A DNA stretch of 64,000 nt, from the NCBI GenBank assembly GCA_040384965.1, contig JAZKIH010000075.1, positions 65,709 through 129,708 on the forward strand. Direction: 5' to 3'. Position 1 is the first letter of the stretch. The number at the start of each line of letters is the position of its first letter. Shown piece after piece: positions 24,155 to 42,256 of the stretch. The stretch is from Bacteroidota bacterium. Lineage in GTDB: Bacteria > Bacteroidota > Bacteroidia > Sphingobacteriales > Sphingobacteriaceae. The notes under the pieces were generated by a model. The model did not search any database and was not told where the DNA came from. It worked only from the letters and a program-made list of their open reading frames with translations. Both the position numbers and the translations under genes were made by a program.

Positions 24155-24174
24155 ATGAACGGAATTACAAGGTA

Positions 24175-25119
24175 ATGATGCACAAAACAATAAAAGGTTT
24201 AGTTATAGCAGTATTTTGCGCAATGCAGTCGGTGACTTCCTTTGCGCAGCAAAACGCTTTATTTTCGCAGTACATGTTTAATACACTTGCAGTAAATCCA
24301 GCTTATGCAGGCAGCAGAAATGTTGTTGCAGCTACTGCACTCTACCGTAATCAATGGGTAGGTATCGAGGGTGCTCCAAAAACAGGAACTTTCACGATCG
24401 ACGCTCCTTTTGCGAATGACCGTATTGGGCTCGGAGCGCAGATAATCAGTGATAAAATTGGAATAACTAGTATGACTTCCGGCGTTTTAACGACTGCATA
24501 TCGCATACCAATGAATAATGGCGCGTTGTCATTTGGTATGGAAGGAAGTGTGACATCATATCGTGCTGGTTATACAGATGTACAGCTTGATCCCTCCGGT
24601 CCGGTAGGAGATCCTGGATTCTCAGAAGATATAAACAAGACTCTTTATAATTTCGGCTCGGGTATTTATTTTAATACAGACCGTTTATATGCCGGGTTTT
24701 CTGTAAAGGATTTTGTGCGCAACCGACTTAATTCTAATACCTTAGTTAATATTGATGATGTAACAGCAAGGCAATCTGCGCATGCATATTTTGCGCTCGG
24801 TTATGTTTTCCCACTGAGTATGGACCTCAACCTTAAAACTTCGGGGCTTGTTAAAGGCGTTCGTGGTGCACCTGTTCAGGGAGATCTTAACGCTACTCTG
24901 TGGATTAAAGAAATGATTGCTATTGGAGTAGAGTATCGCACCAATGCGGATGTGTCAGCTCTTATGGAATTAAGAGTAACTCCGCAAGTCCGTTTGGGTT
25001 ACGCGTATGACAAGAGTACAACCAAATTGGGTAGTTATAATACGGGAAGCCATGAGTTTATGCTACGATATGAGTTCTCATTTGATCGAGATAGAATGTT
25101 ATCACCGAGATATTTTTAA
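24175..25119 (+). CDS. PorP/SprF-family type IX secretion system membrane protein
   Basis: 314 aa. A signal peptide is followed by the family signature QQNALFSQYMFNTLAVNPAYAGS. It starts 20 nt after the adhesin stop, the typical cargo-partner arrangement. Confidence 0.9.
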   Translation: MMHKTIKGLVIAVFCAMQSVTSFAQQNALFSQYMFNTLAVNPAYAGSRNVVAATALYRNQWVGIEGAPKTGTFTIDAPFANDRIGLGAQIISDKIGITSMTSGVLTTAYRIPMNNGALSFGMEGSVTSYRAGYTDVQLDPSGPVGDPGFSEDINKTLYNFGSGIYFNTDRLYAGFSVKDFVRNRLNSNTLVNIDDVTARQSAHAYFALGYVFPLSMDLNLKTSGLVKGVRGAPVQGDLNATLWIKEMIAIGVEYRTNADVSALMELRVTPQVRLGYAYDKSTTKLGSYNTGSHEFMLRYEFSFDRDRMLSPRYF

Positions 25120-25135
25120 AAAAAAGACTTAGACT

Positions 25136-27220
25136 ATGTCAACCAGAATATTGTTAGTTACGTTTTTGATCATCGTCAATACAGGAACGAGTCTGCTATA
25201 TGCTCAGCCAATGGATAATGGTCCGTTGCTAAGAAAAGCTATGATTGAATATCAGGGCTTGCGCTTTACATCTGCAATCAAAGAGCTGACGAAAGTTTTG
25301 GATAAAGATCCTGAAAACGTCGCAGCTCAGGAGATGATTGCTGGTAGTAACCGGAATATTAAAAATTATGACGAAGCTCTCTATTGGTACGGAGAGTTAT
25401 GTAAACAGAAAAACATCAAACCTGAATGGGCGCTGTATTACGCGGAAGCTTTGGCTAATCGTGAGAAGTACGAGGAATCAGAACAATGGTATCGTAAGTT
25501 TCTAAGTATGAAACCAAATGATCGACGTGCTGAAGCATTTAGTAAAGCAAACTTAAATACTTTTTCAAGTAACGCTGGTGAATACAAGGTTGTTTACTCC
25601 AGCCTGAACACTGACGCCTCTGAATATTCTCCAATGTATTACAAAAACGGGTTGATTTTTATAAGTAATCGTGAAGAGAAGAATAGGTATGTATTTCAAT
25701 GGGATCGTACTGCTTATTCAGATATGTATTTTATTAACGATCTCGAAGATATCACAGAAGGCGAGCCCGATAGTGCAAAGCGTGCTGAGAAATTAAAGGC
25801 TTCTCGGTATGTAGCGTCTCATGACGAGGAAAGATCGCTCATGTCTCTTTTTTCTTCATCCAAGGTAAACGAAGACCCTTCTAAAGAACCTCAACTCCTT
25901 CGCGGAAAAGTTAATAGCTCTTACCATGAAGGGCCGGCAGCATTACTTCCAGAGGGTAGTTTGTTGTTTACAAGAAATAACTATATAGGAGGCAAGGCAG
26001 GTAAAAGTCAGGCGGGTGTGAATAAACTCAAGCTTTATACTGCCTCTGGGCCTACTTGGGAAAAGATAACAAACTTCCCTTATAACAATAATGAATATTC
26101 AACAGGTCATCCAACTGTTTCATCAGATGGAAAGGTTTTAATATTTTCTTCTGATATGCCCCGCGGTTTTGGCGGAACTGACCTCTATTATTGTGTTCGC
26201 ACGGGTGATGGTAAGCAATGGGGAAGGCCGGTAAATCTTGGACCAAGAATTAATACAGAAGGCCATGAACAGTTTCCATATCTTGACAAGAACGGAAAAT
26301 TATATTTCTCCTCCACGGGGCATCCGGGATTGGGCGGCCTTGATATTTTCGAGGTTGTATTAAAAGACTTGAAACCAATAGGTAATCCTAAACATCTTGG
26401 GTCGGACGTTAATTCATCTGCGGATGACTTTGGATATATTCAGGATGAAATGGGTAAGACAGGTTATTTCAGCTCCAACAGAAGAGGAAATGACGATATC
26501 TATCAATTCACTCGCATGGCATATACGGTTACTCTCAAAGGATCAGTGATAGACGCAAATGGTAACAGACCTCTCCCAGGCAGTAAAGTAATTATGCGTC
26601 AGAACGGTGTTACTGATACATTGACGACTAATGCTAAAGGTGAATTTACAAGAATTTTGAAAAAGGAAACTGATTATGAGCTGGGTGCGAGCAGACTGTC
26701 ATATGTAAGCGCGCAGAACTATATTTCCACCAGCGATATTAAAATTGATTCAACGATAAATGTAGTCCTTAAGTTAACTCGTGCGGAAAATATCCAGCAA
26801 TGGGTTATGGACAATTGCGCATCGCTGAAGAAGACTTTTACTCTGAAAAATATCTACTACGATCTTGACAAGGCGGTGATCCGTCCTGATGCACAATCAG
26901 CCCTGGATGAAATTGCTGAAGTATTACGGAAAAATCCGGAGATAAGCATTATTACTGCAAGCCATACCGACAGCCGGGCAACAGAAAGCTATAATCGAGA
27001 TTTGTCATTAAGACGGGGGGAAGCCGCGAAAGCATATTTAGTTGCGCGGGGAATTAGTGCGGGAAGAATTGAAGTACAATATTATGGAAAAAGCAGACTG
27101 CAAAACTTGTGTGTGGAGGGTGTTCCTTGCCCGGAAAATGAACAACAGGCGAACAGGAGGACGGAGTTCGAAGTAATAATGAATGGAGTTAATTTATCAC
27201 AGCTAAATTGTCAAAATTAA
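25136..27220 (+). CDS. OmpA-family protein with TPR and TolB-like beta-propeller regions
   Basis: 694 aa with a signal peptide. It has TPR-like helices and PD40-like repeats (SPMYYKNGLIF, HPTVSSDGKVLIFSS, FPYLDKNGKLYFSS). The C-terminal OmpA peptidoglycan-binding domain has NIYYDLDKAVIRPD, HTDSRATESYNRDLSLRRGEAA and NRRTEFEV. Confidence 0.9.
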   Translation: MSTRILLVTFLIIVNTGTSLLYAQPMDNGPLLRKAMIEYQGLRFTSAIKELTKVLDKDPENVAAQEMIAGSNRNIKNYDEALYWYGELCKQKNIKPEWALYYAEALANREKYEESEQWYRKFLSMKPNDRRAEAFSKANLNTFSSNAGEYKVVYSSLNTDASEYSPMYYKNGLIFISNREEKNRYVFQWDRTAYSDMYFINDLEDITEGEPDSAKRAEKLKASRYVASHDEERSLMSLFSSSKVNEDPSKEPQLLRGKVNSSYHEGPAALLPEGSLLFTRNNYIGGKAGKSQAGVNKLKLYTASGPTWEKITNFPYNNNEYSTGHPTVSSDGKVLIFSSDMPRGFGGTDLYYCVRTGDGKQWGRPVNLGPRINTEGHEQFPYLDKNGKLYFSSTGHPGLGGLDIFEVVLKDLKPIGNPKHLGSDVNSSADDFGYIQDEMGKTGYFSSNRRGNDDIYQFTRMAYTVTLKGSVIDANGNRPLPGSKVIMRQNGVTDTLTTNAKGEFTRILKKETDYELGASRLSYVSAQNYISTSDIKIDSTINVVLKLTRAENIQQWVMDNCASLKKTFTLKNIYYDLDKAVIRPDAQSALDEIAEVLRKNPEISIITASHTDSRATESYNRDLSLRRGEAAKAYLVARGISAGRIEVQYYGKSRLQNLCVEGVPCPENEQQANRRTEFEVIMNGVNLSQLNCQN

Positions 27221-27267
27221 TTCGATTTGCACCTGTGCAGGTTGGAGGATTTTGAAACCATTAATAT

Positions 27268-29433
27268 ATGAAACGCATACTCACTCTTATAATTCTCTCA
27301 GCATTAGTTAGTCTATCATCATGTCAGAAACAGGATGCCACTGAAGGCACTGTGGCGAAAGACATTGATGATCTCAAAGTTCCTGCAGGCTTTACATGGG
27401 AGAGTTCCAGAGACATATATTTTGAGATTAGTATCACGGATACAAAATTCTCCTCAGCTATTCACGTGGTTTCAATTTACGATGCAGACCCGGCTCGTAA
27501 CGGGAAGCTTTTGGCAAAAGGATCAGGTTCTATCTCTTCGCCTTTCATGACAAAAGTGTACTTGCCAAATACGATTAAAGAAGTATTTGTTGTTAAAACG
27601 GCGTCCGATAATAGTGAGACCATGCAGAAGGTAGCCGTCACTGGTATAAAGTTAGATGTGAAATTAAGCGGAGTGATTAAAGACGGCGTATTATCAACAA
27701 ATCAGGGAAAAATTTCGGGCTTAAGTGACAGTCCGGATTGCGCTACCGGATGTACGCAAACAATAACATCCAGCAATACCAATCTTAACGTTAATAATGG
27801 CGATGTAATTTGTGTTACAGGAAATAATATAACTATTGGGTTCAATGGCAATGGGGGGACTGTCAGGATTTGCGGCAGCAACGTAACTGTTCAAAACGCA
27901 AATTTAAATAATAGTGCCAAGCTAATAATTACCCGAACTGCATCGGTTACATTCAGTAATCTTAATATGAATGGCACTTCATCTGAATTTATCAACTACG
28001 GTACAACTTCGGTCAATGGTTCATTTTCACCAAAGGGCACCATTACGAACGAGGGAAAGTTAACTACGGGCGGAGACTTTAATCTGAACACAGATACTGA
28101 CTTTTTAAATAATGGGGTGCTCAACGTCGGTGCTACAATGAACGTAAATACGAACACTGTTGCAATTAATAACGGTTCAATAACTACTACCCAGCATTTT
28201 GAGTTAAACAGCAATAGCGATTTCATCAATAATTGCTTTATATGGGCTAAAGGCGAATACAAGCACAATGCCGACATGTTTAATCATGGACTTATAAAAG
28301 TTAATAGCACTACTACCGTAAACGGCAACAGTTTATTATCTCTTCATAATGGTGCTATGTTATCAACGAAGGATATCAAGTTAAATGGTGAAATAATTGG
28401 AGTGGGTACCAGATCAGTTGTGAAAGTCACTGGTGAATCGACTCTTAACGGCGGCGGCAGTGTTAAGAATTCGGTGCAGTTCTGTGATGCCAATGGGGTC
28501 GAAACTAATAAGTCTCCATTTAGCGGTGGTGCCAGTCTGGGATGTAATCAATATATTCCGGTTACTAATTGTAATACAGAAGGAAACGGACAGGCCCCAA
28601 TTGCTGATAGTGACGGCGATGGTGTTAATGATCCGCAGGATGAATATCCTGCAGACCCAACAAAGGCATTTAATAACTATTATCCATCATCATCCCCCAC
28701 GTCTGGAGCTACCGTTGCATTTGAGGATCAATGGCCAAGAAAAGGTGATTATGATATGAATGATGTTGTAGTTTCCTATCGGTACAAGATCGTAACCAGT
28801 GCCCAAAACAAAGTTGTGCAGGTAAATGGTGATTACACATTACACGCATCCGGCGGAAATCTGAAAAATGCATTTGCCGTTGAATTTCCATTAAACCGAA
28901 GCTCAGCAAGCTCGGTAACCGGGGGGACTCTGGAAACTAATCAGGACAAGGCAGTGATTATATTGTTTTCAAATATGCGTGCTGAAATGGTGAATTGGAA
29001 CACCGTGCCAGGTGAGGCGACTACAGCTGAGAAAAACTACAGTATTTCCTTTAATGTGACCAATGGCCCATCTTTAAGTGTTTTTGGGTTGGGCTCCTAT
29101 AATCCTTTTATATGGGACAATGGATCGCTGATCGGCAGAGGATATGAAATTCACCTTCCGGGGCAAACACCTACTAACCGGGCAAATTCTTCCATCTTTG
29201 GAACTGACGACGATAATACTAATCCCGGTGCAGCAAGATATTATTTAACTGCAGGCAACTTGCCCTGGGCTATCAGCATGCCGGTTAAGCCTTTTAAATA
29301 TCCTAAAGAACAAACGCCTATTGTGGGAGGTTATCTCAAATTTCAAACATGGGCAGAATCTGGAGGAAGCCAGTTTGTTGACTGGTATTCTAATACTTCA
29401 ACGGGCTACCAGGATCTAACCAAGTTATATTAG
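27268..29433 (+). CDS. LruC-domain lipoprotein with an Asn-rich beta-solenoid-like N-terminal half
   Basis: 721 aa. Lipobox is LVSLSSC. About 300 aa of N/G/T-rich ~20-25-aa periodic sequence follow. It also has a thrombospondin-type-3-like Ca-binding motif DSDGDGVNDPQDEYPADP and the LruC signature AFEDQWPRKGDYDMNDVVV. Confidence 0.8.
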   Translation: MKRILTLIILSALVSLSSCQKQDATEGTVAKDIDDLKVPAGFTWESSRDIYFEISITDTKFSSAIHVVSIYDADPARNGKLLAKGSGSISSPFMTKVYLPNTIKEVFVVKTASDNSETMQKVAVTGIKLDVKLSGVIKDGVLSTNQGKISGLSDSPDCATGCTQTITSSNTNLNVNNGDVICVTGNNITIGFNGNGGTVRICGSNVTVQNANLNNSAKLIITRTASVTFSNLNMNGTSSEFINYGTTSVNGSFSPKGTITNEGKLTTGGDFNLNTDTDFLNNGVLNVGATMNVNTNTVAINNGSITTTQHFELNSNSDFINNCFIWAKGEYKHNADMFNHGLIKVNSTTTVNGNSLLSLHNGAMLSTKDIKLNGEIIGVGTRSVVKVTGESTLNGGGSVKNSVQFCDANGVETNKSPFSGGASLGCNQYIPVTNCNTEGNGQAPIADSDGDGVNDPQDEYPADPTKAFNNYYPSSSPTSGATVAFEDQWPRKGDYDMNDVVVSYRYKIVTSAQNKVVQVNGDYTLHASGGNLKNAFAVEFPLNRSSASSVTGGTLETNQDKAVIILFSNMRAEMVNWNTVPGEATTAEKNYSISFNVTNGPSLSVFGLGSYNPFIWDNGSLIGRGYEIHLPGQTPTNRANSSIFGTDDDNTNPGAARYYLTAGNLPWAISMPVKPFKYPKEQTPIVGGYLKFQTWAESGGSQFVDWYSNTSTGYQDLTKLY

Positions 29434-29504: not shown

Positions 29505-30404
29505 ATGAGATGGGCTTTCCGGCTGCTCGTGAGTAGAGTTAAAAATTATATAACTTTAATTCGGCCGCATCAATGGATTAAAAACCTATTCATTTTTGCT
29601 CCTTTCTTTTTTGGGTTTCATTTTTCCTCAGCAAATATTAAAACTCTTGCGATAGGATTTGGGATATTTTGCTTAAGCGCGAGTGCTGTCTATATCCTCA
29701 ATGATTTTTTAGATGTTAATGAAGACAGGCTCCACCCAACAAAACGCAACCGTCCATTAGCCGCCGGAAATATTTCAAAATCATCCGCAATGATAGTGAT
29801 GCTTGTTATATTGAGTGTTTCGATTTTAGGAGCATACCTTCTGAACCGGGATTTTTTTTATATAATATTGATCTATGTCGTTCAGAATATTTTATACTCT
29901 TATAAGTTGAAGCACATCTCCATACTTGATATATCTTTAATATCAACCGGGTTTGTATTGCGCATTCTGGCTGGAGCTGTATTGATTCAAGTCCAGGCGT
30001 CGGTCTGGATCGTGCTCGTCACCTTTCTTTTATCCATATTTCTGGCCCTTGCGAAAAGGAGAGATGATGTGCTGCTGTCTTCAAAAGGAACTCCAAGTGT
30101 TCGTCGGAATATTGACGGCTATAATCTTGAATTTGTTAATGCCGGGATGATACTTACTTCAGGAATGACGATATGTGCTTATGTTTTATATACTGTGCAG
30201 CCGGAAGTCATGTTGAGGTTTGGATCTAATAACGTGTATCTTACCTCAGTCTTTGTCATCATGGGTATTTTAAGGTATATGCAAATCACCTTTGTGGAGA
30301 ACAATTCCGGGAACCCTACCTTAATTCTTTTGAAGGATACATTTCTTCAATTTGTACTCCTAGCCTGGCTGTTGAGCTTTATGATTTTTTTTCTTAACTG
30401 GTAA
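29505..30404 (+). CDS. UbiA-family polyprenyl-phosphate 5-phosphoribosyltransferase (Rv3806c / DPPR synthase-like)
   Basis: 299 aa, polytopic. IRPHQWIKN and SASAVYILNDFLDVNEDRLHPTKRNRPLAAG closely parallel the M. tuberculosis Rv3806c motifs IRPRQWVKN and NDVRDVEADREHPTKRFRPIAAG, which I recalled from memory. Confidence 0.8.
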   Translation: MRWAFRLLVSRVKNYITLIRPHQWIKNLFIFAPFFFGFHFSSANIKTLAIGFGIFCLSASAVYILNDFLDVNEDRLHPTKRNRPLAAGNISKSSAMIVMLVILSVSILGAYLLNRDFFYIILIYVVQNILYSYKLKHISILDISLISTGFVLRILAGAVLIQVQASVWIVLVTFLLSIFLALAKRRDDVLLSSKGTPSVRRNIDGYNLEFVNAGMILTSGMTICAYVLYTVQPEVMLRFGSNNVYLTSVFVIMGILRYMQITFVENNSGNPTLILLKDTFLQFVLLAWLLSFMIFFLNW

Positions 30405-30415
30405 TCTGATCTGTA

Positions 30416-31714
30416 ATGAAATTGCATGCTTGGGGGAATTATCCGGAAGTTGACGCACTGATATATTATTATCGGGGTCAAACGGATTTATCGCCGATGC
30501 TGAATACGCGAGCACCATTTATAGCATTCGGAAATGGACGAAGTTATGGAGATTCTGCTTTATCCGAAAAGGTATTGAGGATGACACAACACAACCGTAT
30601 GTTGAGTTTTGATAATGAGCTTGGCAAACTTACATGTGAGTCCGGCCTTTTACTATCTGACATTATAAAAGTGTTCCTGCCAAGAGGTTGGTTTCTTCAG
30701 GTTACTCCCGGTACGAAACTTATAACAGTCGGTGGTGCGATCGCCGCCGACATCCATGGTAAGAACCATCATCAGCTGGGTTGCTTTAGCTCATGTGTGG
30801 AGTCTTTTAAATTGGTGCTTCCGGATGATAGAATCGTTTCCTGCTCCGAGAAAGAAAACACAGATTTGTTTAGGGCAACTTGTGGTGGAATGGGTTTGAC
30901 GGGTATAATTATCGAAGCAACACTATTTTTAAAGAAAGTGCAATCCAGTAAAATTTCACAAACTACCATTAAAAACGCTGATCTTGAACAGACCTTTGAA
31001 GCATTTGAGAAATATAAAAACTCACCATACTCAGTCGCATGGATCGATTGCTTAGCTAAAGGGAAGTCTATGGGGCGTTCTCTATTGATGTGTGGCGAAT
31101 TTCTTACTGATGGCCATCTTGATTATCGGGAAAAGAAATCCATGAATGTACCTCGGTTTTTTCCAGCCTTTCTATTGAATGCGTTAACGGTGAGGGTATT
31201 CAATTTCGTTTACTATAATAAAGTTGTCAATAGAATTACGACGAAAGATGTCAGTGTCGATAGCTTTTTCTATCCTCTGGACGCGATTAAAAACTGGAAC
31301 AGGGTGTATGGTAAAAATGGTTTTGTTCAATACCAGTTTATCCTACCTAAGGATAATAGTTTTGAAGGTCTGAGGGAGATTTTACACATAATCGCCGAAA
31401 GTGGAAAGGGATCTTTCCTCGCTGTACTGAAATTATATGGGGAAGAAAATGAAAACTATTTATCTTTTCCAATAGAGGGGTATAGTTTAGCACTAGATTT
31501 TAAAATTGAAAATGGATTGTTTGAATTATTAAACGAACTTGACATATTGGTATTAAAATATTCCGGGCGAATATACTTAGCGAAAGATGCAAGGGTGTCG
31601 AAGGAAGTCTTTGAGAAGGGCTATCCGAAAATTACCGTTTTTCGTGATCTTAGAGATAGGTTCGGCATGAAAAATATATTCAGCTCACGACAGTCTGAGC
31701 GATTGGGTTTATAA
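30416..31714 (+). CDS. dprE1: FAD-dependent polyprenylphospho-ribose 2'-oxidase (DprE1-like)
   Basis: 432 aa. Motifs match DprE1 along the whole length: GNGRSYGDS, VTPGTKLITVGGAIAADIHGKNHH, GGMGLTGII, FFYPLDAIKNWNRVYGKNGFVQYQF, SFPIEGYSLALDF and GRIYLAKDARV. Confidence 0.85.
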   Translation: MKLHAWGNYPEVDALIYYYRGQTDLSPMLNTRAPFIAFGNGRSYGDSALSEKVLRMTQHNRMLSFDNELGKLTCESGLLLSDIIKVFLPRGWFLQVTPGTKLITVGGAIAADIHGKNHHQLGCFSSCVESFKLVLPDDRIVSCSEKENTDLFRATCGGMGLTGIIIEATLFLKKVQSSKISQTTIKNADLEQTFEAFEKYKNSPYSVAWIDCLAKGKSMGRSLLMCGEFLTDGHLDYREKKSMNVPRFFPAFLLNALTVRVFNFVYYNKVVNRITTKDVSVDSFFYPLDAIKNWNRVYGKNGFVQYQFILPKDNSFEGLREILHIIAESGKGSFLAVLKLYGEENENYLSFPIEGYSLALDFKIENGLFELLNELDILVLKYSGRIYLAKDARVSKEVFEKGYPKITVFRDLRDRFGMKNIFSSRQSERLGL

Positions 31715-32448
31715 TGGAAAAATGGTTATTAATACTTGGGGCTAACAGCGATATCGCAATTGCTACTGCTCATCAGTTTTCATCATTTGGGTGGAATATA
31801 ATGCTTTGTTCCCGTAATGTAGAAAATCTGCAAAGAGTAGCGGCTGATCTTCATATCAGGCATAATGTACAAGTCAAAGTGATGTACTTTGATGCCTCAG
31901 ACTTTGGTTCTCATAGAGCATTTTATGAAGGCTTGCCCAAACAACCGGATGGGGTGATTTTAGCTTTTGGCTATCTTGGAGACCAGTATCGCGCCCAGGC
32001 AGATTTCCAGGAATCCAGGGAGATTATCAATGTAAACTATTCGGGTGCCGTGAGTATTCTTGAAATTATTTCAGTTAAAATGGAAGCTGCGCAAAAAGGT
32101 TTCATTGTTGGAGTAAGTTCGGTGGCGGGAGATCGCGGCAGAGCCAGTAATTATATTTACGGATCGGCGAAAGGAGCTTTCTCTGTATATTTAAGTGGAT
32201 TGCGTCATCGGATGTTTGCTTCAAATGTTAGTGTGCTAACGGTTAAGCCGGGCTTTGTGGCTACAAAAATGACAGCCGATTTGAACTTGCCAAAATTGTT
32301 AACTGCCGATCCCGAACAAGTTGCGAAGGCAATTTATGGCGGTGTGCAAAAGAGAAAAAATGTGATTTATGTTAAACCCATCTGGCAGCTTATAATGACG
32401 GTAATACAGCTGCTTCCTGAGTTTATTTTTAAACGGACTAAACTTTAG
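31714..32448 (+). CDS. dprE2: Short-chain dehydrogenase/reductase, DprE2-like 2'-keto reductase
   Basis: 244 aa. Rossmann motif is LILGANSDIA and the catalytic motif is YGSAKGA (YxxxK). Blocks FDASDFGSH, AFGYLGD, INVNYSGAVS, KPGFVATKM and PEFIFKR parallel Rv3791. Its start overlaps the dprE1-like stop (TAATG). Confidence 0.8.
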   Translation: MEKWLLILGANSDIAIATAHQFSSFGWNIMLCSRNVENLQRVAADLHIRHNVQVKVMYFDASDFGSHRAFYEGLPKQPDGVILAFGYLGDQYRAQADFQESREIINVNYSGAVSILEIISVKMEAAQKGFIVGVSSVAGDRGRASNYIYGSAKGAFSVYLSGLRHRMFASNVSVLTVKPGFVATKMTADLNLPKLLTADPEQVAKAIYGGVQKRKNVIYVKPIWQLIMTVIQLLPEFIFKRTKL

Positions 32449-33042
32449 ATGAGGCTCGCTTTATTTGATTTTGATGGAACGCTGACTAGTGAAGATTCAT
32501 TACAGCATTTTATCATATTTTCCATAGGGCGATGGAAATACATTATTGGCTTAATGCTTCTCAGTCCTATTCTTGTTTCATATTTTCTGGGTTTGATTTC
32601 AAATGATAAGGCAAAGGAAATATTAGTGGGCTATTTTTTTAAAGGCTGGTCTGTATCTAGTTTTAATGAAATAGCGGAACGGTATTCCCTCAATGAAATT
32701 CAAAAGATCATTCGGCCAAAGGCAATGGAAAGGATCGAATACCATCAGGCAAACAACGATCGGATAATTGTGGTATCTGCATCCCTCCGGCCGTGGATAG
32801 AGCCTTGGTGCCGGTCCAACAAAATCGAAGTTATAGCTACAACCTTACAAGATGAAAATGGAATAATTACCGGGAGGTTTTCATCTAAGAATTGTAATGG
32901 TCCTGAGAAAGTTGTACAAATTAGAAAGATCGTAAATCTAGAAAGCTACGACAAGATATTTGCATATGGAGACAGTTCCGGCGATATGGAAATGTTGGAA
33001 TTAGCAACGGATGACTTAGGTTTCAAGAAGTTGTTTCATTGA
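32449..33042 (+). CDS. HAD-superfamily (subfamily IB-like) phosphatase
   Basis: 197 aa. HAD motif I is LALFDFDGTLT. Motif II is VVSAS and motif IV is YGDSSGDMEML. Its ATG directly abuts the upstream TAG. Confidence 0.8.
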   Translation: MRLALFDFDGTLTSEDSLQHFIIFSIGRWKYIIGLMLLSPILVSYFLGLISNDKAKEILVGYFFKGWSVSSFNEIAERYSLNEIQKIIRPKAMERIEYHQANNDRIIVVSASLRPWIEPWCRSNKIEVIATTLQDENGIITGRFSSKNCNGPEKVVQIRKIVNLESYDKIFAYGDSSGDMEMLELATDDLGFKKLFH

Positions 33043-33045
33043 TGT

Positions 33046-34407
33046 ATGAGTCATCAAGTAAAGCCTTTCGTTAATTTGAATAAAGCATTTTTTTTACGCT
33101 TTCTTACTTTTTTCCTAAGCTTTTCATTGTTAGTGATTTTTATCTATCAATGTATTAAGGGTTATGAAAAGAGTTCGTGGAACATTACAGAATGGTTAAT
33201 AAATTATGAAGGTGGATTTGTCCGGCGTGGCTTGCCCGGACAGCTTATACTCTTCATGTATGAAAATTTGAATGTAAACCCGTATTATTTTATAATAGGT
33301 TTGTGTGCGGTATCTTACATAACTTTCGTTGGGATCATATTTTACCACTCTCAACACAAAAAGTTCCCAAATATTTTACTTCCTTCGGCCTTTTTGCTTG
33401 GAGGACCTATCATTAATGATTTCTGGGTTAGAAAGGACGTGACCCTGCTTTTGTTTTTCATTTCTGCGCTCTACATAATTAAAAGCTATCGAAGTTTCGC
33501 TAGCGTCCTTGCATTCAATATAATAATAGTCATAGCCCTTCTGTGCCACGAAACTTTTGGTTTTTGGGCACTGAGCACGTTGATACTAGTTTACACGCTA
33601 AGTATCCCGGACAAAAAGCAACGTTCTTTTTTGCACGAATTGAGTTGTAGTTTGGGATATTTTTCGCCATCTATTATCGTGTTTCTTATCTGTATTTATT
33701 TCAAAGGTAATTTGGATATCGCGAATACTATATGGTCCTCTTGGGAAGATATTACATTTCCGAAGCCTGGATTGCTAGACACGGTACCACCAGCAGCTAT
33801 TCACTCGCTATCTTGGAGTTTAAGGCAGGGTATGAGCCTCTCTTTTTATTTGCTGGTGGAATTCTCCTACGGTATCTATGTTCCGGCAGGAATATTTTTC
33901 ACTCTTATGTCGGTCTATCTGCTCCTATCAAATTCACCCGAAATCAAGGCTGTTGACAATAGTAAATCGAGGAATGGAATATTCGACTCTTTGATCGAAA
34001 AAGATATTCTTGCTAAATGGTTGATAATACAATTTGTTTTAATATTCCCATTATTCATCTTAGGATGGGATTATGGCCGCTGGATCTTTATATGGTCTGC
34101 CAGTTCCTTATCCTTGTTTTTAATACTCCCGTTAGAAACTCATCAGGGAATGAGGGAATTTAAAATTTGGAGAGTGTTAACAAGAGTAAAGCAGAATACC
34201 TTTCGACTTATTTTTGGCAAACTAATTTCGAGGCTACCCATATCTCAATCTCCCCGAAAGTTTCAATTTTTTGTTTTGTTATTTTTATTTACGGGGGTTT
34301 CAGTAACAGGCTGGAATCTTTTAACGTTCATTATTACATCTCCATTGGGCATCATCTCACGGCTGCTTTTTTTAATTAGTCGGGGATCATTAGGAAACTT
34401 AGGATAG
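33046..34407 (+). CDS. Polytopic membrane protein of unknown family (candidate lipid-linked-sugar-dependent glycosyltransferase)
   Basis: 453 aa with roughly 10-12 hydrophobic spans. The first loop contains NYEGGFVRRGLPGQ. It starts 4 nt after the HAD stop and is the last gene of the plus-strand operon. The function is inferred from context only. Confidence 0.6.
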   Translation: MSHQVKPFVNLNKAFFLRFLTFFLSFSLLVIFIYQCIKGYEKSSWNITEWLINYEGGFVRRGLPGQLILFMYENLNVNPYYFIIGLCAVSYITFVGIIFYHSQHKKFPNILLPSAFLLGGPIINDFWVRKDVTLLLFFISALYIIKSYRSFASVLAFNIIIVIALLCHETFGFWALSTLILVYTLSIPDKKQRSFLHELSCSLGYFSPSIIVFLICIYFKGNLDIANTIWSSWEDITFPKPGLLDTVPPAAIHSLSWSLRQGMSLSFYLLVEFSYGIYVPAGIFFTLMSVYLLLSNSPEIKAVDNSKSRNGIFDSLIEKDILAKWLIIQFVLIFPLFILGWDYGRWIFIWSASSLSLFLILPLETHQGMREFKIWRVLTRVKQNTFRLIFGKLISRLPISQSPRKFQFFVLLFLFTGVSVTGWNLLTFIITSPLGIISRLLFLISRGSLGNLG

Positions 34408-34448: not shown

Positions 34449-35258
34449 TTAGTTATGAATTTGGGTCTTATTCTTGATAAGTTCGAAGATACCGCACCCA
34501 TAATAATTACAGTTAAAGTTTGATGCGATACCTTCCTCGGTTAACTCCGCATTTTCGAAAAGATCGCCACTGTCGTCTACATAACTAAAGCTCCGGATAT
34601 TGTAATTTGGTTGGAGAATACCAAGCAAATAGGCGACACTAAAAACCCGTTGCTCATTAAACTCTATCCTTTGTTTTCCTATAGGCACAGAAAAGTAAAA
34701 TATGCCATTATCCGATAGCATCTTATGTATCGTTTTTAAAGCTTTTAAATGACCATCAATGTCGATTGGGTCACCGTATCTGCCTAGGCCAAAATGTTCA
34801 ATGGCATGTAGTGACGATATGGAGTCGCAACAAGCCTCCATGTCTCTGGGAAGCTGGGTCAAATCAGCCTGAGAAAACTTAATATTCTTTACAAAGCTTT
34901 TTTGCGGCCTTATGTCAAAGATTTCAATTTCTCTAAAAATGGATACATGAGCTACAAATCCGTCGATTCTGGACCCAATGTCAATATGCCTTATTGGCTT
35001 GTTTTCATATACTTTACGCGCAACCAGGATATCCTGATGGAAGTAATTCCCTTTCATAGTCCCGCTTTCAGAATCCATTTCATTAAGAACAGGAGAAAAT
35101 CTGCCGAAACTGAAGTCAGTACTACCTCTCATTTGTTTTTTAAGTGTCCTGTATCCCCTTATATAGGCCGGAAATTTTGTTATAAGATCGATAAATTTCG
35201 ACCCGTTAAATCCGAGCAGGAGAAACAATAGTTCTATTTCTTTTACGAGTCTTTTCAT
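34449..35258 (-). CDS. Class I SAM-dependent methyltransferase (DUF268-like)
   Basis: 269 aa. Motif-I-like sequence is IRHIDIGSRIDGF. It also has SSLHAIEHFGLGRYGDPID. It is the last gene of the minus-strand glycan operon. Confidence 0.65.
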   Translation of the reverse strand: MKRLVKEIELLFLLLGFNGSKFIDLITKFPAYIRGYRTLKKQMRGSTDFSFGRFSPVLNEMDSESGTMKGNYFHQDILVARKVYENKPIRHIDIGSRIDGFVAHVSIFREIEIFDIRPQKSFVKNIKFSQADLTQLPRDMEACCDSISSLHAIEHFGLGRYGDPIDIDGHLKALKTIHKMLSDNGIFYFSVPIGKQRIEFNEQRVFSVAYLLGILQPNYNIRSFSYVDDSGDLFENAELTEEGIASNFNCNYYGCGIFELIKNKTQIHN

Positions 35259-35261
35259 AAT

Positions 35262-36083
35262 CTATATCACATCTTCAATTACGTCGCACCATATAAATTT
35301 TTTTGTCATTATTCCTTTCGGATGTTCTTTATTCAACCGAAATCCGAGCCAGTTTTTTGGTGCATAAACTTTATTTTGTTTTTCGCTGAGATAAGAAGCC
35401 CACCAGGAAAAACTGCTATTGGAAATTATCGCGATATCGGCATTTTTGATAATTTGAAAATCGATGATTTCTGAGTTTTCTGAGAAGATAAAATTTTCTT
35501 TAACATCAAATTCCTTTTTGACGAAATCGATATCGTCGCTTAGGAAAAATACACGATACGAGCTTAAATCAGAAATGTTATTCAGGCGATTTTTGAAATA
35601 TTCGATCGGAAGGGAAATGTCTCTTTTACCATAATTCAGGTAGTCGGTCCGGCGAATATGAATAGCGATCGTTTTGTTATGGTCGAATATATCGCCATAT
35701 AAGTTTCTAAATTGATCAATGTACTTTTTTTTGAGTTTGAGCTGTAATTTATCAGGTGTTTGATTTATATACCAATCAGTTTGGAAGAAACCAGTATAGA
35801 TTGTATTATTTTTAATTTCGACTGGTTTCGGAACCTGGATATTTTGAATGTAAACTTCTTTGAATTTAAGGGCCTTCGGAATTATCCTCATTAGCACGGA
35901 GTACAATTTTGAATTAAGGGTCAAATTGTTGAAGACCCCCAGATCGAAATACTTCGCAAAATAAGCGTGATGTGGGTTCGGGAAAAAGAAAATTTGATGC
36001 TTCGACAAAGACTTTAAATATCTGAGGAAAGTAAATTGAAATAGCTGATTTCCCAGTCTGCCGTTAAACTTAACGCCGATCAT
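35262..36083 (-). CDS. GT11-family alpha-1,2-fucosyltransferase-like glycosyltransferase
   Basis: 273 aa. GT11 signature blocks are GRLGNQLFQF, IAIHIRRTDYL and ISNSSFSWWASYL. Confidence 0.85.
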   Translation of the reverse strand: MIGVKFNGRLGNQLFQFTFLRYLKSLSKHQIFFFPNPHHAYFAKYFDLGVFNNLTLNSKLYSVLMRIIPKALKFKEVYIQNIQVPKPVEIKNNTIYTGFFQTDWYINQTPDKLQLKLKKKYIDQFRNLYGDIFDHNKTIAIHIRRTDYLNYGKRDISLPIEYFKNRLNNISDLSSYRVFFLSDDIDFVKKEFDVKENFIFSENSEIIDFQIIKNADIAIISNSSFSWWASYLSEKQNKVYAPKNWLGFRLNKEHPKGIMTKKFIWCDVIEDVI

Positions 36084-36103: not shown

Positions 36104-37510
36104 TTATTGGTTGTTATTTTCAGAGCCTGGAAAATGTTTTTTCCCTTTCATCCGGGAGTAAAGAACTCGCTTTACTCGCAGGTGATATTTACTGTACATT
36201 TCGGGATAGAATTTATATGCATATATCAAAGTATTTCTCATTCTTATATTAAGTTCTTTTCGCAAAACTATCTTAGCGATAAAAAAGCCGATGATTGCTG
36301 AAATGAGTGATGCATAGGCGGCGCCCATAATTCCCAGCCATGTAATCAGTGGGTAATTCAAACTGATGTTAATACTGGCAGTTGCTAACACAATAAAAAA
36401 CGTAGCTCTTGTTTTTCCTATGGAATCTAAAATTGTGCCTACCTGCCGGCCGTATGGAATTAGCAAGCAATATAATAGCGTTACATGCAAAAGCGGTACA
36501 GCATCCTCATAATTGTTGCCCGCAATTAAATATACAATTTGGTCAGAAAAAAGGAAAAGAAACAGAACTGCTGGAATAAGTATAGCCATTAAAATTCCAA
36601 CCGATTTTTCATATAAATACTTAATGGCATCTTTTCCTTCCGACTCTATTCTCATGGCGCTTTGAGGGAACACAATGGTAGCGACAGCATTAGTTGGGAT
36701 ATCAACCAGATTAGTTATACGCACAGCCACATTGAATGCGCCTGATGCTGCTGGTGATATCATGGCTCCCAGCATCATCTGGTCAATCGTATTTGCAAGA
36801 ATTCCGCTCACCGAAGTTCCAAAAGCATATTTGCTAAAATGAAACATGCGTTTAATCCATTCTGGATAGATTTTGAAGGAGAGCAGGAGATGTGGCCGGA
36901 CATAACGATATGAAAGGACAAGCGAGATCAAAACGGTAACTATTTGTAAATAAACAAGGTTGATTAACTCAACCTTGATATCGAATATAAAGCATAAAAA
37001 TAGATAGCCTGTGAATGTGCCCTGCCTAACAAATGAACTAATGAAAATGCCTCTGAATTTTAAATTGGCTTGTTCTATGCAATTTAACTGAACAAGAATT
37101 CCCGAGAGCAGGAACACAACATTGTAAAGTTGAAAGATAGGGACAAGTTCAGGAGAATCCCAGGCCTTTGCCAAAAGTGGTGCAAACAACAGACTGATAA
37201 CAATGCAGCCTAAAGTCAAAATGCCAGTTATCACAAATGAAGAGGAAATAATTTTTGAGTGATCTTCTTCGTCACTCCCGGAAATGAATTTTATCAGAGC
37301 ATTTTGGACCAGACCGCTTCTCACGATCTCCAAAACTGTCACTGTACTTAAGAATAATGTCCAGCTGCCAAATGCATGCTCATCGAGAAGATAGTGGACC
37401 AGTAGATAGAAGGTCGCAAAACCAAAAAAAACACCTGACAGATTCTGAAGGATCGTAAAAAAACCAGATCTGATCCAATAAACATCCTTGCCCCTCCCGC
37501 TTATCTTCAT
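36104..37510 (-). CDS. wzx: Wzx-like oligosaccharide flippase (MOP/PST family)
   Basis: 468 aa with about 12-14 TM helices. It has the typical PST organisation and a basic C-terminal tail. Its ATG overlaps the upstream TGA (ATGA). Confidence 0.8.
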   Translation of the reverse strand: MKISGRGKDVYWIRSGFFTILQNLSGVFFGFATFYLLVHYLLDEHAFGSWTLFLSTVTVLEIVRSGLVQNALIKFISGSDEEDHSKIISSSFVITGILTLGCIVISLLFAPLLAKAWDSPELVPIFQLYNVVFLLSGILVQLNCIEQANLKFRGIFISSFVRQGTFTGYLFLCFIFDIKVELINLVYLQIVTVLISLVLSYRYVRPHLLLSFKIYPEWIKRMFHFSKYAFGTSVSGILANTIDQMMLGAMISPAASGAFNVAVRITNLVDIPTNAVATIVFPQSAMRIESEGKDAIKYLYEKSVGILMAILIPAVLFLFLFSDQIVYLIAGNNYEDAVPLLHVTLLYCLLIPYGRQVGTILDSIGKTRATFFIVLATASINISLNYPLITWLGIMGAAYASLISAIIGFFIAKIVLRKELNIRMRNTLIYAYKFYPEMYSKYHLRVKRVLYSRMKGKKHFPGSENNNQ

Positions 37511-38475
37511 ACTTCAGTTAGCTGACGGCAATAGTATAAAGAAACGATCTTTTTTAGTTCGTCTTCATTTTTTGCATGATGGATTTTTGCACCCGATAGT
37601 TGAGGATATAGTTTTGAATAACAATTGAAATGATGCTCAGGTCCTTTTTTGGATAGAATAATGTTTGTTCCCCCAAAATAGCTCGCCAGAGTAGCTGTAC
37701 CCCCATGTGTGGAAATAAAGCAATCCGAATTGGCATAGACCATTAATTGCAGATGATTGAAACTTCGTGCATTTGCCTGGTTCTCGGTATACAAGTCGTC
37801 AAGTAAAATCACCTCCGGATATTCAGTTCGTAACCAGTCATATTCGTTCAAATCGAAAATTGTACTATCGTCAGAAACTATATTTACTACTTTCGGCCGA
37901 TTATATATAATGGTGTAGTTTTCTCTTAAATTTTCGATCAAAAACTTAAGCATTGGGATGTCAAAAAAGCTTATAGGCGGTCCGTTCCATTCTTCATTAT
38001 ACCGGTTTGCAATAACAAGGCTGGGCTTTTCGAATACGTAAATGTCATTTTTATAATAGTCTTTTAACGGTACCGAAAGCCATTTGCTCATGTCATAATT
38101 CTGGCTATAAAGGATTCTCGGCAGTTCGAAGTCGTAATTCCCCTCGTTTGTCCGGGAATCAAATATTTCCTCATGGTCAGGGGAAAAAAAATAAAGCTCG
38201 CGTGTGTATTTTGAAGATCTGGTCTTTTTCAAGGTCCCGTTCTTAAAATGCCAGTAAGCAAAGGGGAGGGCGAATTGCAATTCAGGTGCAAATTCACCCT
38301 GGAAAGAAACAATTTTGTATTTCTGTTTTAAGAAGTAGTCACGAATGATGTATTTAGTTTGAACCAACTGGCAAACAATGGTATCCCTGTAGAAGTATCT
38401 TAACAATGGATCCACCCGTGGGTACTTCAAAAGCAGGTAAAAGCTTAGTAGCTTATTTAGCAATTTAGAGATCAT
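37507..38475 (-). CDS. Hypothetical protein, possible unclassified glycosyltransferase
   Basis: 322 aa. No known family was recognised by eye. C-terminal ISTHGGTATLASYFGGTNIILSKKG resembles nucleotide-sugar-binding loops of GT-B-like enzymes. It is translationally coupled inside a GT-rich operon. Confidence 0.5.
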   Translation of the reverse strand: MISKLLNKLLSFYLLLKYPRVDPLLRYFYRDTIVCQLVQTKYIIRDYFLKQKYKIVSFQGEFAPELQFALPFAYWHFKNGTLKKTRSSKYTRELYFFSPDHEEIFDSRTNEGNYDFELPRILYSQNYDMSKWLSVPLKDYYKNDIYVFEKPSLVIANRYNEEWNGPPISFFDIPMLKFLIENLRENYTIIYNRPKVVNIVSDDSTIFDLNEYDWLRTEYPEVILLDDLYTENQANARSFNHLQLMVYANSDCFISTHGGTATLASYFGGTNIILSKKGPEHHFNCYSKLYPQLSGAKIHHAKNEDELKKIVSLYYCRQLTEV

Positions 38476-38479
38476 ATTA

Positions 38480-39382
38480 TCAAGTGTTATTTGATCTCTT
38501 TGATCTTAATCCATTGGATATGTAATTTATAGCATTATTCCCGTGAAGCTTAAGTCTGTTTTGAAAGGATCGAAAGATTCCACCTTCTGCGCGAAGCCGT
38601 CGTGACGACGTAAATGCTCTGGTATCATTACCGGTTAGCTGTTTTAAACGGCCTTTAGTTAATAAATTAAGAGCCATTGTTCCGTCTTCGGCTTCATCAA
38701 CAAAGTACTCGCTGCCCAGGGCATTATCATAGATTCGAGCTCTTTTTACTTTAAAACCGCTGCCGGTCTTGCCTATTTCGGTCACGAAACCCATATTGAA
38801 GCCCAGGACATTAATAAACTCATGTCTGGGTTTCCTGATCTTGATAAGGACGCTTGTTAATGTTTCATAAAAGAAAAAGCTTAATCGACTTTGTTTTTCT
38901 CCAGGAACAAAGGAATATCTGCCGTAAACCCCAACTATTTCTGGATCGTCCTTCATAGGCTTTACCATTGAATCTATCCATTCTGGCGGATATAAAGTAT
39001 CTGAATCTGCACACAGATGAAATTTCCCTTTTGCATTTTCCAGTCCCATTTGTCGTGCATGGGAAGGGCCCTGAAGGACTTGTAACAGACTTTTAACATT
39101 TAACCTGTCAAGAATTTCCTGGGTAGTGTCAGTAGAATTATTATTAACAACGATAATTTCGACGTTCTTAGAAGTGATGTTTGATGCAAGTGATGAAAGG
39201 GTTTTGTGGATACACCCTTCTTCGTTCCATGCCGGCACCACAATAGACACTTCAGGATCAGTTGAGCGGAATTTACTGAGTCGTTCTTTCAACTCATTAA
39301 CTTCCTCTTGAGAAAGCTCGCTAAAATTTCTATCCGCATATAAGTGCGGAATTATCCATGGCGGTAGTTTGAATATCGACAT
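38480..39382 (-). CDS. Family 2 glycosyltransferase
   Basis: From ORF 38480..39391, whose track start is TTG. The first ATG (MSIFKLPPW) is at 39382. Motifs are VSIVVPAWNEE, VNNNSTD and CADSDT. Confidence 0.85.
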   Translation of the reverse strand: MSIFKLPPWIIPHLYADRNFSELSQEEVNELKERLSKFRSTDPEVSIVVPAWNEEGCIHKTLSSLASNITSKNVEIIVVNNNSTDTTQEILDRLNVKSLLQVLQGPSHARQMGLENAKGKFHLCADSDTLYPPEWIDSMVKPMKDDPEIVGVYGRYSFVPGEKQSRLSFFFYETLTSVLIKIRKPRHEFINVLGFNMGFVTEIGKTGSGFKVKRARIYDNALGSEYFVDEAEDGTMALNLLTKGRLKQLTGNDTRAFTSSRRLRAEGGIFRSFQNRLKLHGNNAINYISNGLRSKRSNNT

Positions 39383-39435
39383 CAAATACAAGGTCTTAAA
39401 ATGGGGACTTTCACAATGAGTGCAGTAATTGTAAA

Positions 39436-40320: not shown

Positions 40321-40415
40321 TCGTCTGTCAAAGCTAGTTTAACTGATGTTTAAAGATAATTATATAAAATAGATGCAGCATATGTTTTAAATGGAATTGT
40401 ATAAAGACTTTCAGA

Positions 40416-41630: not shown

Positions 41631-42253
41631 TTAATTTTCTCCCAGATTTTGGTTTGAGGATTATATGTTTTTATCACTTTAGCTGGATTACCCACGGCAA
41701 CGCTAAATGGGGGGATATCTTTCGTGACGACACTTCCGGCACCAATAATACAATGAGTTCCCAAAGTTACACCTGCTGTAATTGTACTGTTGGCTCCGAT
41801 CCAGACTTTGTCGCCAATTCTAATAATTGCGGTGGTAACTTTTTGTCTCATTGGAGACTTGCTTACGTCTTCATAGCCATGGTTCAAGCCTGAAATAACA
41901 ATATTTTGGGCTAATATTACTTCGTCTCCAATTTCGACAGGGCCTATTATTACATTACTAACACCTATCAGCGAACTTTTTCCAATGATCACATCTCCAA
42001 CAGCATTATTCACAGTACTAAAATCTTCAATCACTGAATCATCACCAATTTGAAAATCCCTAAAAGGAAACACATCCATTCTTGTTCTCCAGCGTATAAT
42101 AGATCCTCTGCCTTTCCGGTGGAAAAAAGGATTAACAATTAACCTTACCCATAAGCGTGGCCTGTACTCTCCGGTTGGGATAAGCATCCATGAAGCCAGT
42201 TTTTTCAGGGCCGGATTAGATTTTATTTTATTTTTGATAGTCATGCTCGGCAT
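41627..42253 (-). CDS. Hexapeptide-repeat (left-handed beta-helix) O-acetyltransferase
   Basis: 208 aa. Hexapeptide repeats run through IGDKVWIGANSTITAGVTLGTHCIIGAGSVVTKDIPPFSVAVGNPAKVI. Confidence 0.85.
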   Translation of the reverse strand: MPSMTIKNKIKSNPALKKLASWMLIPTGEYRPRLWVRLIVNPFFHRKGRGSIIRWRTRMDVFPFRDFQIGDDSVIEDFSTVNNAVGDVIIGKSSLIGVSNVIIGPVEIGDEVILAQNIVISGLNHGYEDVSKSPMRQKVTTAIIRIGDKVWIGANSTITAGVTLGTHCIIGAGSVVTKDIPPFSVAVGNPAKVIKTYNPQTKIWEKIK

Positions 42254-42256
42254 TTG

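Follow-up and report, generated by a model that had tools for sequence, protein, structure and literature searches.

Among the closest described relatives of the locus analyzed herein is the pentofuranose glycosylation system of Citrobacter youngae O1 and O2, in which α-linked pentofuranose side chains are added extracytoplasmically (Kelly, Duong, Nothof, Lowary and Whitfield, PNAS 2024; PMC11127046). That system is built from a UbiA-type polyprenyl-phosphate phosphoribosyltransferase (PPPRS) that carries a HAD phosphatase domain, a MATE/SMR flippase, and a GT-C enzyme that founded glycosyltransferase (GT) family GT136, together with auxiliary epimerases that fix the identity of the sugar, a short-chain dehydrogenase/reductase (SDR) for xylofuranose (Xylf) and DprE1/DprE2 for arabinofuranose (Araf). 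This "three-component" glycosylation, which depends on phosphoribosyl pyrophosphate (PRPP), is a widespread glycan-diversification system, and DprE1/DprE2 homologues are present in the loci of all Araf-containing glycans that were examined (PMC11127046). Here we consider a five-gene operon in a 64,000-nt stretch of DNA (the window) from a Bacteroidota bacterium of the Sphingobacteriaceae (assembly GCA_040384965.1, contig JAZKIH010000075.1, positions 65,709 to 129,708 of the forward strand). The operon encodes a UbiA-family protein, a DprE1-like flavoenzyme, a DprE2-like SDR, a HAD-IB phosphatase, and a polytopic membrane protein that we term P5. We propose that it probably makes a lipid-linked D-arabinofuranose donor and transfers this sugar to a surface glycan via P5.

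The window operon resembles the C. youngae system in having a PRPP-dependent UbiA-type PPPRS with an NDxxDxxxD motif, a HAD-type 5'-phosphatase, although the substrate of the window HAD-IB protein is a prediction from sequence, optional epimerases that set the pentose (DprE1/DprE2 for Araf), and a polytopic membrane enzyme with a predicted periplasmic site of action, and both lie beside a polysaccharide locus. Three features set the window system apart: the HAD-IB protein stands alone rather than being fused to the PPPRS, the cluster has no gene for a MATE/SMR flippase, and the putative terminal transferase belongs to an uncharacterized family. Specifically, P5 is a 453-aa Rv1490-like protein that lacks the C-terminal carbohydrate-binding module of the GT136 enzyme and is not detectably similar to ArnT, named in that study as the closest sequence relative of GT136. 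The pilin arabinosylation system of Pseudomonas aeruginosa Pa5196/PA7 (PsPA7_6245-6249 plus TfpW) is similar to the window system in that Gram-negative homologues of Rv3806c, DprE1, and DprE2 provide a lipid-linked D-Araf donor, a polytopic membrane enzyme uses this donor, and a dedicated flippase is not strictly required. TfpW differs from P5, however, as a 646-aa GT-C protein that carries a DDX motif together with a TPR domain and whose gene is unlinked to the sugar genes, and the Pseudomonas cluster, which serves a pilin acceptor, has a homologue of PAP2-type phosphatases as well as a GtrA-like protein.

The pathway is of a kind that was already described in 2024, and automatic annotation partly recognizes the window genes. 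The proteins are present in NCBI on a 132-kb contig of a Bacteroidota metagenome-assembled genome (MAG), where PGAP labels the UbiA protein "decaprenyl-phosphate phosphoribosyltransferase" and names the other products generically. An earlier note on this DNA had stated that the pathway is known experimentally in only a few cases outside actinobacteria, a view that is outdated given its described distribution (PMC11127046) and the more than 8000 matches (E<1e-30, ~60% identity, many phyla) that we find for the family of the 432-aa DprE1-like protein. Bacteroidota go unmentioned in the main text and supplementary information of PMC11127046, and our literature search for a Bacteroidota DPA (decaprenyl-phospho-arabinose) pathway found no description. 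The new element is the uncharacterized P5 family with its swappable furanose-donor modules.

Probable donor synthesis and the mycobacterial pathway

The earlier note described five tightly packed plus-strand genes at 29505-34407, and the open reading frame (ORF) coordinates match this exactly (Table 1). Read from the UbiA gene to the P5 gene, the first two genes are 11 nt apart, the DprE1-like stop and the DprE2-like start overlap by 1 nt, and the last two gaps are 0 nt and 3 nt; the overlap fits a DprE1-DprE2 complex. The UbiA protein matches Pfam UbiA and scores 245 bits on the NCBIfam model for decaprenyl-phosphate phosphoribosyltransferase (DPPRS; NF008977, cut-off 234), compared with at most 50 bits on all other NCBIfam UbiA subfamily models. 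Its top match in the PDB is Rv3806c of Mycobacterium tuberculosis (Mtb; 8j8j, E=4e-40, 29.5% identity over 275 columns), and the sequence NDFLDVNED at residues 66-74 keeps N66, D67, D70, and D74 of the NDxxDxxxD motif, the loop residues of which are essential in both Mtb DPPRS and C. youngae ORF15 (PMC11127046).

The DprE1-like protein has an FAD_binding_4 domain and matches the DprE1 entries of the PDB at E~6e-72, with the next family at 3e-8. It is 36.8% identical to Mtb DprE1 (Rv3790) and keeps H132, K134, and K418, including the catalytic Lys418 and His132, and has Phe at the position of Tyr314 and Ala at that of Cys387. Cys387 of Mtb DprE1 is the covalent target of benzothiazinones, and the Ala in the aligned position predicts that covalent DprE1 inhibitors of this type would not act on the window enzyme. 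The degree of identity is in keeping with the assignment since the genetically validated DprE1 of P. aeruginosa, at just 33% identity, is no nearer to the Mtb enzyme. The DprE2-like SDR has DprE2 (Rv3791; 21gq_C, E=3e-28, 30.9% identity) as its top PDB match, with the next SDR at 2e-13, and contains Y149xxxK153 and a GANSDI cofactor motif; it also passes the generic PRK07102 SDR model (NF005489, 336 bits, cut-off 267). We take the two redox enzymes to be members of the DprE1 and DprE2 subfamilies and not proven isofunctional orthologues. The fourth protein is of the HAD-IB type (TIGR01490, 122 bits, cut-off 98) with the motifs DFDGT (residues 7-11) and GDSSGD (174-179). A HAD homologue (34-46% identity) is present in eight of the nine genome P5 loci with a UbiA match, and in three further loci that we examined (L085, L086, and L088) it is located after UbiA or after the UbiA-DprE1-DprE2 block. 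The UbiA-DprE1-DprE2(-HAD) module itself is also found in Arenibacter (L086), in Desulfuromonas (L087), and in a related Bacteroidota contig (L088), and Arenibacter sp. BSSL-BM3, a cultured organism, has UbiA-DprE1-DprE2-HAD. These results bear out the calls of the earlier note for an Rv3806c-like UbiA protein, DprE1-like and DprE2-like enzymes, and a HAD phosphatase, as do the 12 predicted transmembrane (TM) helices of P5 for its polytopic membrane protein.

The window operon thus shares with the mycobacterial DPA pathway homologues of three of its enzymes, all with their catalytic residues kept. It differs in having the HAD-IB protein, in line with the HAD phosphoribose phosphatase of the Gram-negative systems (PMC11127046), in place of the PAP2 phosphatase Rv3807c and in the Ala of its DprE1-like protein at the Cys387 position, and no match to the Pfam families of PAP2, GtrA (Rv3789-like), or Emb/Aft (GT53/85/89) was found in the five proteins or their neighbors. 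The window system presumably uses undecaprenyl phosphate, not decaprenyl phosphate, as its lipid carrier, and the sugar is likely a decoration rather than part of an essential wall polymer. Because the enzymes fall in DPA-pathway subfamilies, it is reasonable to predict, as did the earlier note, that the window organism has a surface glycan that contains D-Araf or a related pentofuranose. An environmental Bacteroidota organism would then display on its surface D-arabinofuranose, a sugar known chiefly from the wall of mycobacteria.

Two of the comparison loci are of interest in themselves. That of Desulfuromonas acetexigens (L087, 3048-9027) has UbiA-DprE1-DprE2 together with GtrA and, in the place of the phosphatase, a DUF212 protein; an NAD-dependent epimerase and a flavoprotein of the NAD_binding_8 type are present too, and no P5 was called inside it. 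A 6.6-kb contig from human feces (L085, MT837543.1), recorded as "Bacteriophage sp." and unverified, encodes UbiA and HAD along with a small transporter of the SMR/EamA type, an NAD-dependent epimerase, and a DUF6044 membrane protein of 565 aa. Judged by its gene content, it is a complete pentofuranose system of the C. youngae type, probably for Xylf, with a further family of candidate transferases; the contig may be a fragment from Bacteroidales or come from a seroconverting phage. No similarity was detected between P5 and its DUF6044 protein, and a tblastn search with P5 of a phage collection gave no match.

The P5 family and its exchangeable donor modules

A related MAG (GCA_040384025.1, JAWVHG010000918.1) has the same flanks as the window, with the adhesin-PorP-OmpA-DUF4842 genes upstream and DUF268-GT11-Wzx downstream (68-84% amino acid identity), and yet has a different donor cassette between them (L082, 5908-9377). 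Here a 244-aa GT2 protein of the polyprenyl-P-sugar synthase type and a 417-aa flavoprotein resembling UDP-galactopyranose mutase (UGM) replace the four arabinose genes, and they are followed by a P5 homologue that is 51% identical to that of the window. The strong solved relatives of the flavoprotein are all UDP-galactopyranose mutases, the sole other matches being two amine oxidases near the 0.001 limit, which suggests that this cassette would provide a lipid-linked donor of the galactofuranose type. In a third relative (L088) the module is that for arabinose, as it is in the window. Our literature search for lipid-linked galactofuranose GT-C systems found nothing relevant.

The same partnership of P5 with different donor modules is seen far beyond this lineage. 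We surveyed the gene context of the best 80 of 423 genome matches to P5, which come from Bacteroidota, Verrucomicrobiota, Cyanobacteriota, candidate phyla radiation (CPR) bacteria, Proteobacteria, and Actinomycetota, added L082 and L084 by exact look-up of the homologues P0002 and P0040, and clustered the neighbors within 4 kb, giving 81 tabulated loci. A lipid-phosphate-sugar synthase lies within 4 kb of the P5 homologue in 53 of 81 loci and, when only the 53 loci flanked by 4 kb or more on each side are counted, in 40; in those 40 well-flanked loci the synthase is a highly conserved 243-aa GT2 protein in 32 and the UbiA/DprE module in eight. The nearest curated relatives of this GT2 protein are PgfS, dolichyl-phosphate hexose transferase, ArnC, and AglJ. 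Three types of donor module can be distinguished, namely UbiA+HAD with or without DprE1/DprE2, GT2 with a GT75 MtdL-like mutase, and GT2 with a UGM-like flavoprotein. In the second type, found in 20 P5 loci, GT2 is joined by a protein annotated as "STELLO" whose sole solved relatives are the structures of MtdL (E=3e-21), a GT75 NDP-pyranose mutase that produces GDP-L-galactofuranose (GDP-L-Galf) and GDP-L-fucofuranose (GDP-L-Fucf) (PMC9937993). In Pontibacter sp. HSC-14F20 (L084, 6195-9305) and about 20 other loci the cassette consists of three genes, GT2, "STELLO" protein, and P5. Cassettes of this kind may synthesize a lipid-linked hexofuranose, for example L-Fucf or L-Galf, and also use it.

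The UbiA-based modules also vary. Seven Bacteroidota P5 loci (L035, L041, L045, L050, L056, L061, and L064) have UbiA and HAD without DprE1/DprE2, an arrangement that predicts ribosylation dependent on polyprenyl-P-ribofuranose, and one of them (L041) has in addition a 126-aa small transporter of the SMR/EamA type, a candidate flippase. DprE1/DprE2 are found beside P5 in cyanobacterial, Hylemonella, and actinomycete loci. In Prochlorococcus single-cell genomes (L038-L079) either GT2+P5 or UbiA-HAD-DprE2-DprE1-P5 lies beside one conserved neighbor gene, a second and independent case of donor-module exchange. That neighbor is provisionally LptF/G-like by its sequence.

The logic of these cassettes is that of Gtr-type O-antigen glucosylation (GtrA/GtrB/GtrC) in Shigella and Salmonella, in which a lipid-phosphate-sugar synthase is paired with a serotype-specific periplasmic polytopic transferase. 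Most P5 homologues are paired with a small GtrB-like GT2 protein, and in both systems the cassettes behave as swappable units that diversify surface antigens. The window system differs in that its donor module is based on PRPP and UbiA rather than GT2 and lacks GtrA, and the P5 family is conserved across phyla whereas GtrC proteins are mutually dissimilar. P5 behaves as the constant partner of interchangeable lipid-phosphate-sugar modules, many of whose sugars are demonstrably or plausibly furanoses, and the simplest reading of this constant pairing is that P5 is a periplasmic transferase that uses those donors. More tentatively, and as a possibility that we rate somewhat below probable, we suggest that the P5/Rv1490-like family (~4300 clusters) is a new family of periplasmic glycosyltransferases for polyprenyl-P-furanose donors, whose modules are swapped between close relatives at a fixed locus and so diversify surface glycans. 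If true, the pentofuranose paradigm of 2024 would come to include lipid-linked hexofuranoses, and the uncharacterized M. tuberculosis membrane protein Rv1490, on which we found no functional literature, would gain its first functional lead. It would also offer a candidate function, as the transferase partner of lipid-linked furanose donors, for a large unannotated membrane family that crosses phyla, with members in Prochlorococcus, Akkermansiaceae, CPR bacteria, and Actinomycetota. Nature has run a compact experiment in glycan diversification by swapping donor cassettes at a single conserved locus, and P5 cassettes may provide new parts for glycoengineering.

The family is large and poorly covered by family models: a profile search of 1.84 billion cluster representatives at 50% identity recovers 4319 relatives at E≤0.001, of which 2517 reach E≤1e-10. 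P5 matched no family in local Pfam and NCBIfam searches, where the Pfam copy used was without PF27463 ("Rv1490"), and precomputed tables give it a faint match to PF27463 and many of its homologues ordinary ones. An AlphaFold2 model built with 54 homologues has a predicted local distance difference test (pLDDT) score of 88 and a predicted TM-score (pTM) of 0.90. Hydropathy and the positive-inside rule predict that the N-terminus is cytoplasmic, which places all of the invariant or near-invariant charged residues (E49, R60, R61, R129, K130, D131, H168, E169, D342, and R345) on predicted periplasmic loops. The loop that follows TM1 (residues 39-76) is predicted to form two short helices (45-51 and 62-75), contains the near-invariant E49, and bears the family signature W-x-I-T-E-W-L-I-N-Y-x-G-G-F-V-R-R-G-L-x-G; as modeled, this is an arrangement typical of GT-C enzymes, which have 7-13 TM helices. 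In Foldseek searches GT-C enzymes are the sole PDB matches of P5 with a query-normalized TM-score (TMq) above 0.2, although the resemblance is weak and none is significant (PglB, E=0.64, TMq 0.35; AftA, TMq 0.24-0.28; STT3, TMq 0.26). The tests made did not identify P5 as an enzyme of the Emb/Aft or GT136 type, where for GT136 the sequence comparison was with ArnT and the PDB chains. A Wzy-type polymerase was considered and rejected, as the locus already has a Wzy_C protein and the minimal GT2-mutase-P5 cassettes are without repeat-unit genes. P5 is most likely a periplasmic furanosyltransferase. Some members of the family are fused to further sequence, P0252 (1014 aa) to a polytopic N-terminal extension of ~595 aa and P0329 (687 aa) to one of ~255 aa. 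No Pfam match and no similarity to neighbor proteins was found for either extension, and Pfam and NCBIfam searches with five P5 homologues and four longer or fused ones (P0252, P0329, P0074, and P0081) gave no families.

A proposed mechanism and its alternatives

The mechanism that we put forward starts from what the sequences show, which is homology, conserved motifs, the order of the genes, statistics of co-occurrence, and the exchange of donor cassettes among related genomes, and we infer from this the chemistry of each step, the lipid carrier, the catalytic role of P5, the anomeric outcome, and the acceptor. The donor would be synthesized on the cytoplasmic face of the inner membrane. There the HAD-IB phosphatase would strip the 5'-phosphate from the product of the UbiA-type enzyme, the DprE1-like flavoenzyme would oxidize C2' of the ribose, and the DprE2-like SDR would reduce the 2'-keto intermediate to the arabino configuration, giving polyprenyl-phospho-β-D-arabinofuranose. 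This donor would cross the membrane by a route for which the operon has no flippase gene, and P5, with its periplasm-facing invariant Glu, Asp, Arg, Lys, and His residues, would move the furanose onto a surface glycan, most probably the polysaccharide of the convergent Wzx/Wzy locus.

Several observations weigh against this mechanism or parts of it. The operon contains no flippase gene (GtrA, SMR, or MATE) and has no room for one between its five genes, no small polytopic ORF was found in the 64-kb window, and the sole MATE-like protein is the Wzx of the convergent operon. P5 has no significant match in structure or sequence to a characterized glycosyltransferase (the Foldseek PDB matches listed above being the best), a profile of its 54 homologues finds nothing among PDB sequences even at E≤10, ArnT included, the single P5 sequence gave only noise, and a Foldseek search of the model against BFVD came back empty. 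The DprE1-like and DprE2-like proteins fall under the cut-offs of their own NCBIfam models (391 bits on NF053785, cut-off 500, and 190 bits on the DprE2 model, cut-off 250), both of which are tuned to actinobacteria. Scans for sigma-70 promoters and terminators gave fewer matches than expected by chance and none at the operon borders, with models that were not made for Bacteroidota promoters. In a rough neighbor-joining tree the window P5 groups with P5 proteins of GT2 modules and not with the clades of the arabinose or ribose modules, so that the donor specificity is not readable from P5 itself; this placement suggests a recent replacement of the donor module, donor promiscuity, or both. Donor promiscuity has been described for the GT136 enzyme ORF12 (PMC11127046). 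Finally, with regard to the acceptor, the GT2-GT75-P5 cassette of Pontibacter sits amid housekeeping genes. The lack of a flippase gene in operon and window, together with that of significant similarity to any solved glycosyltransferase, would suit a variant in which the donor pathway is as described and P5 is a flippase, scramblase, or scaffold for polyprenyl-P-furanoses, with the transferase encoded elsewhere, and a flippase role has in fact been proposed for the GT-C protein TfpW in P. aeruginosa. We regard this variant as unlikely, however, because the minimal cassettes such as that of Pontibacter would be left with no transferase, some UbiA+HAD+P5 loci (L041) already have a small transporter of the SMR/EamA type, and the invariant acidic and basic residues are predicted to cluster on the periplasmic side, as a catalytic site would.

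With P5 as the transferase, the identity of its acceptor and of its sugar must also be weighed. An acceptor other than the Wzx/Wzy polysaccharide, either a protein O-glycan (for example on the upstream T9SS [type IX secretion system] adhesin) or lipopolysaccharide, is unlikely in our view. The cassette does lie directly downstream of the same T9SS adhesin/PorP/OmpA/DUF4842 module in the window, L082, and L088, and D-Araf is a pilin O-glycan in P. aeruginosa, but this module is not found beside P5 homologues beyond the window lineage. In contrast, a P5 homologue has GT11 within 4 kb in 19 of the 81 loci and the DUF268 methyltransferase in 14, L082 being among the latter, and the two genes recur in this way in Verrucomicrobiota, Geomonas, and a gammaproteobacterial MAG. 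This recurrence across phyla gives the cassette a functional link with the convergent polysaccharide operon and not with the T9SS module, and the adjacent Wzx/Wzy polysaccharide is the leading candidate for the acceptor. It is less likely still that the final sugar is not D-Araf and is instead a 2'-keto sugar, another pentofuranose, or ribofuranose. The scores of DprE1 and DprE2 under the equivalog cut-offs could be read in this way, as could the seven epimerase-free UbiA+HAD loci, from which the family likely transfers ribofuranose, and the promiscuity of ORF12; nevertheless, DprE1 and DprE2 are the nearest solved relatives by very large margins with their catalytic residues kept, homologues of both are present at the loci of all Araf-containing glycans that Kelly et al. 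examined, and the window protein is at least as near to Mtb DprE1 as is the validated DprE1 of P. aeruginosa. The earlier note had itself named placement of the genes in unrelated UbiA, FAD, or SDR subfamilies as a result that would count against the pathway. One could imagine genes that cluster by chance and serve, for instance, to prenylate an aromatic precursor of a quinone or of some secondary metabolite, given the nonribosomal peptide synthetase-polyketide synthase (NRPS-PKS) cluster 13 kb upstream. In the NCBIfam and PDB comparisons, however, all of the enzymes fall in DPA-pathway subfamilies, the gap between the DPPRS model and the other UbiA models is wide, and the UbiA-DprE1-DprE2(-HAD) module is intact within glycan loci of several phyla, so that this possibility is effectively refuted by the NCBIfam scores and PDB matches of the UbiA, DprE1-like, and DprE2-like proteins and is extremely improbable.

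Layout of the locus and neighboring genes

Table 1. The five-gene operon and its surroundings, with positions numbered from the first nucleotide of the window.
Feature	Position	Strand	Length and basis
UbiA-family polyprenyl-phosphate 5-phosphoribosyltransferase, Rv3806c/PPPRS type	29505..30404	+	299 aa; NCBIfam, PDB, motif
DprE1-like FAD-dependent polyprenyl-phospho-ribose 2'-oxidase	30416..31714	+	432 aa; PDB, NCBIfam, residues
DprE2-like SDR (2'-keto reductase)	31714..32448	+	244 aa; PDB, motifs
HAD-IB phosphatase, probable polyprenyl-P-ribose-5-phosphate 5'-phosphatase	32449..33042	+	197 aa; TIGR01490, motifs
P5, Rv1490-like membrane protein (faint PF27463 match) with 12 predicted TM helices, probable periplasmic polyprenyl-P-furanose-dependent glycosyltransferase	33046..34407	+	453 aa; AlphaFold2 model, topology, gene context
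DUF268-type methyltransferase, last gene of convergent polysaccharide operon	34449..35258	-	Pfam DUF268 + Methyltransf_23
GT11 (fucosyltransferase family) glycosyltransferase	35262..36083	-	Pfam Glyco_transf_11, E=2e-20
Rest of Wzx/Wzy polysaccharide locus, candidate source of acceptor glycan	36104..50161	-	Pfam
T9SS adhesin module: CHU_C adhesin, PorP/SprF, OmpA-type protein, DUF4842 lipoprotein	19343..29433	+	Context only

The earlier note had placed the operon directly downstream of a T9SS adhesin module and 41 nt from a convergent 16-gene Wzx/Wzy operon. Both positions are confirmed, as the module is found upstream, where the adhesin (1603 aa) combines Ig and cadherin repeats with a CHU_C (T9SS) signal, and the minus-strand neighbor ends at 34449, 41 nt from the P5 gene. 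The type of the convergent locus also stands, and its size is more loosely counted as about 14-16 genes, the DUF268 methyltransferase and GT11 included. By Pfam, the remainder of the locus encodes Wzx, GT2, GT8, GT4, an acetyltransferase, Wzy, an FkbM methyltransferase, a further GT2, a Wzz/kinase, an OEP-like protein, the initiating Bac_transf transferase, and a response regulator. The OEP/TolC-like protein (48016-48699, minus strand) is short, at 227 aa, and lies at the place where a Wza-type exporter might be expected, and the ORF of the response-regulator receiver (49775-50161, minus strand) overlaps the 5' end of that of the initiating transferase.

The far upstream part of the window (779-16074, minus strand) is occupied by the hybrid NRPS-PKS cluster, which encodes three proteins. 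The largest (2161 aa) has the domains acyl-AMP ligase, ACP, KS, AT, ACP, and class-III aminotransferase and resembles the loading module for β-amino fatty acids of lipopeptides, and the other two have the domain orders C-A-methyltransferase-PCP (1468 aa) and C-A-PCP-TE (1467 aa). Two GT2 genes (16188-18309) on the same strand come after this cluster.

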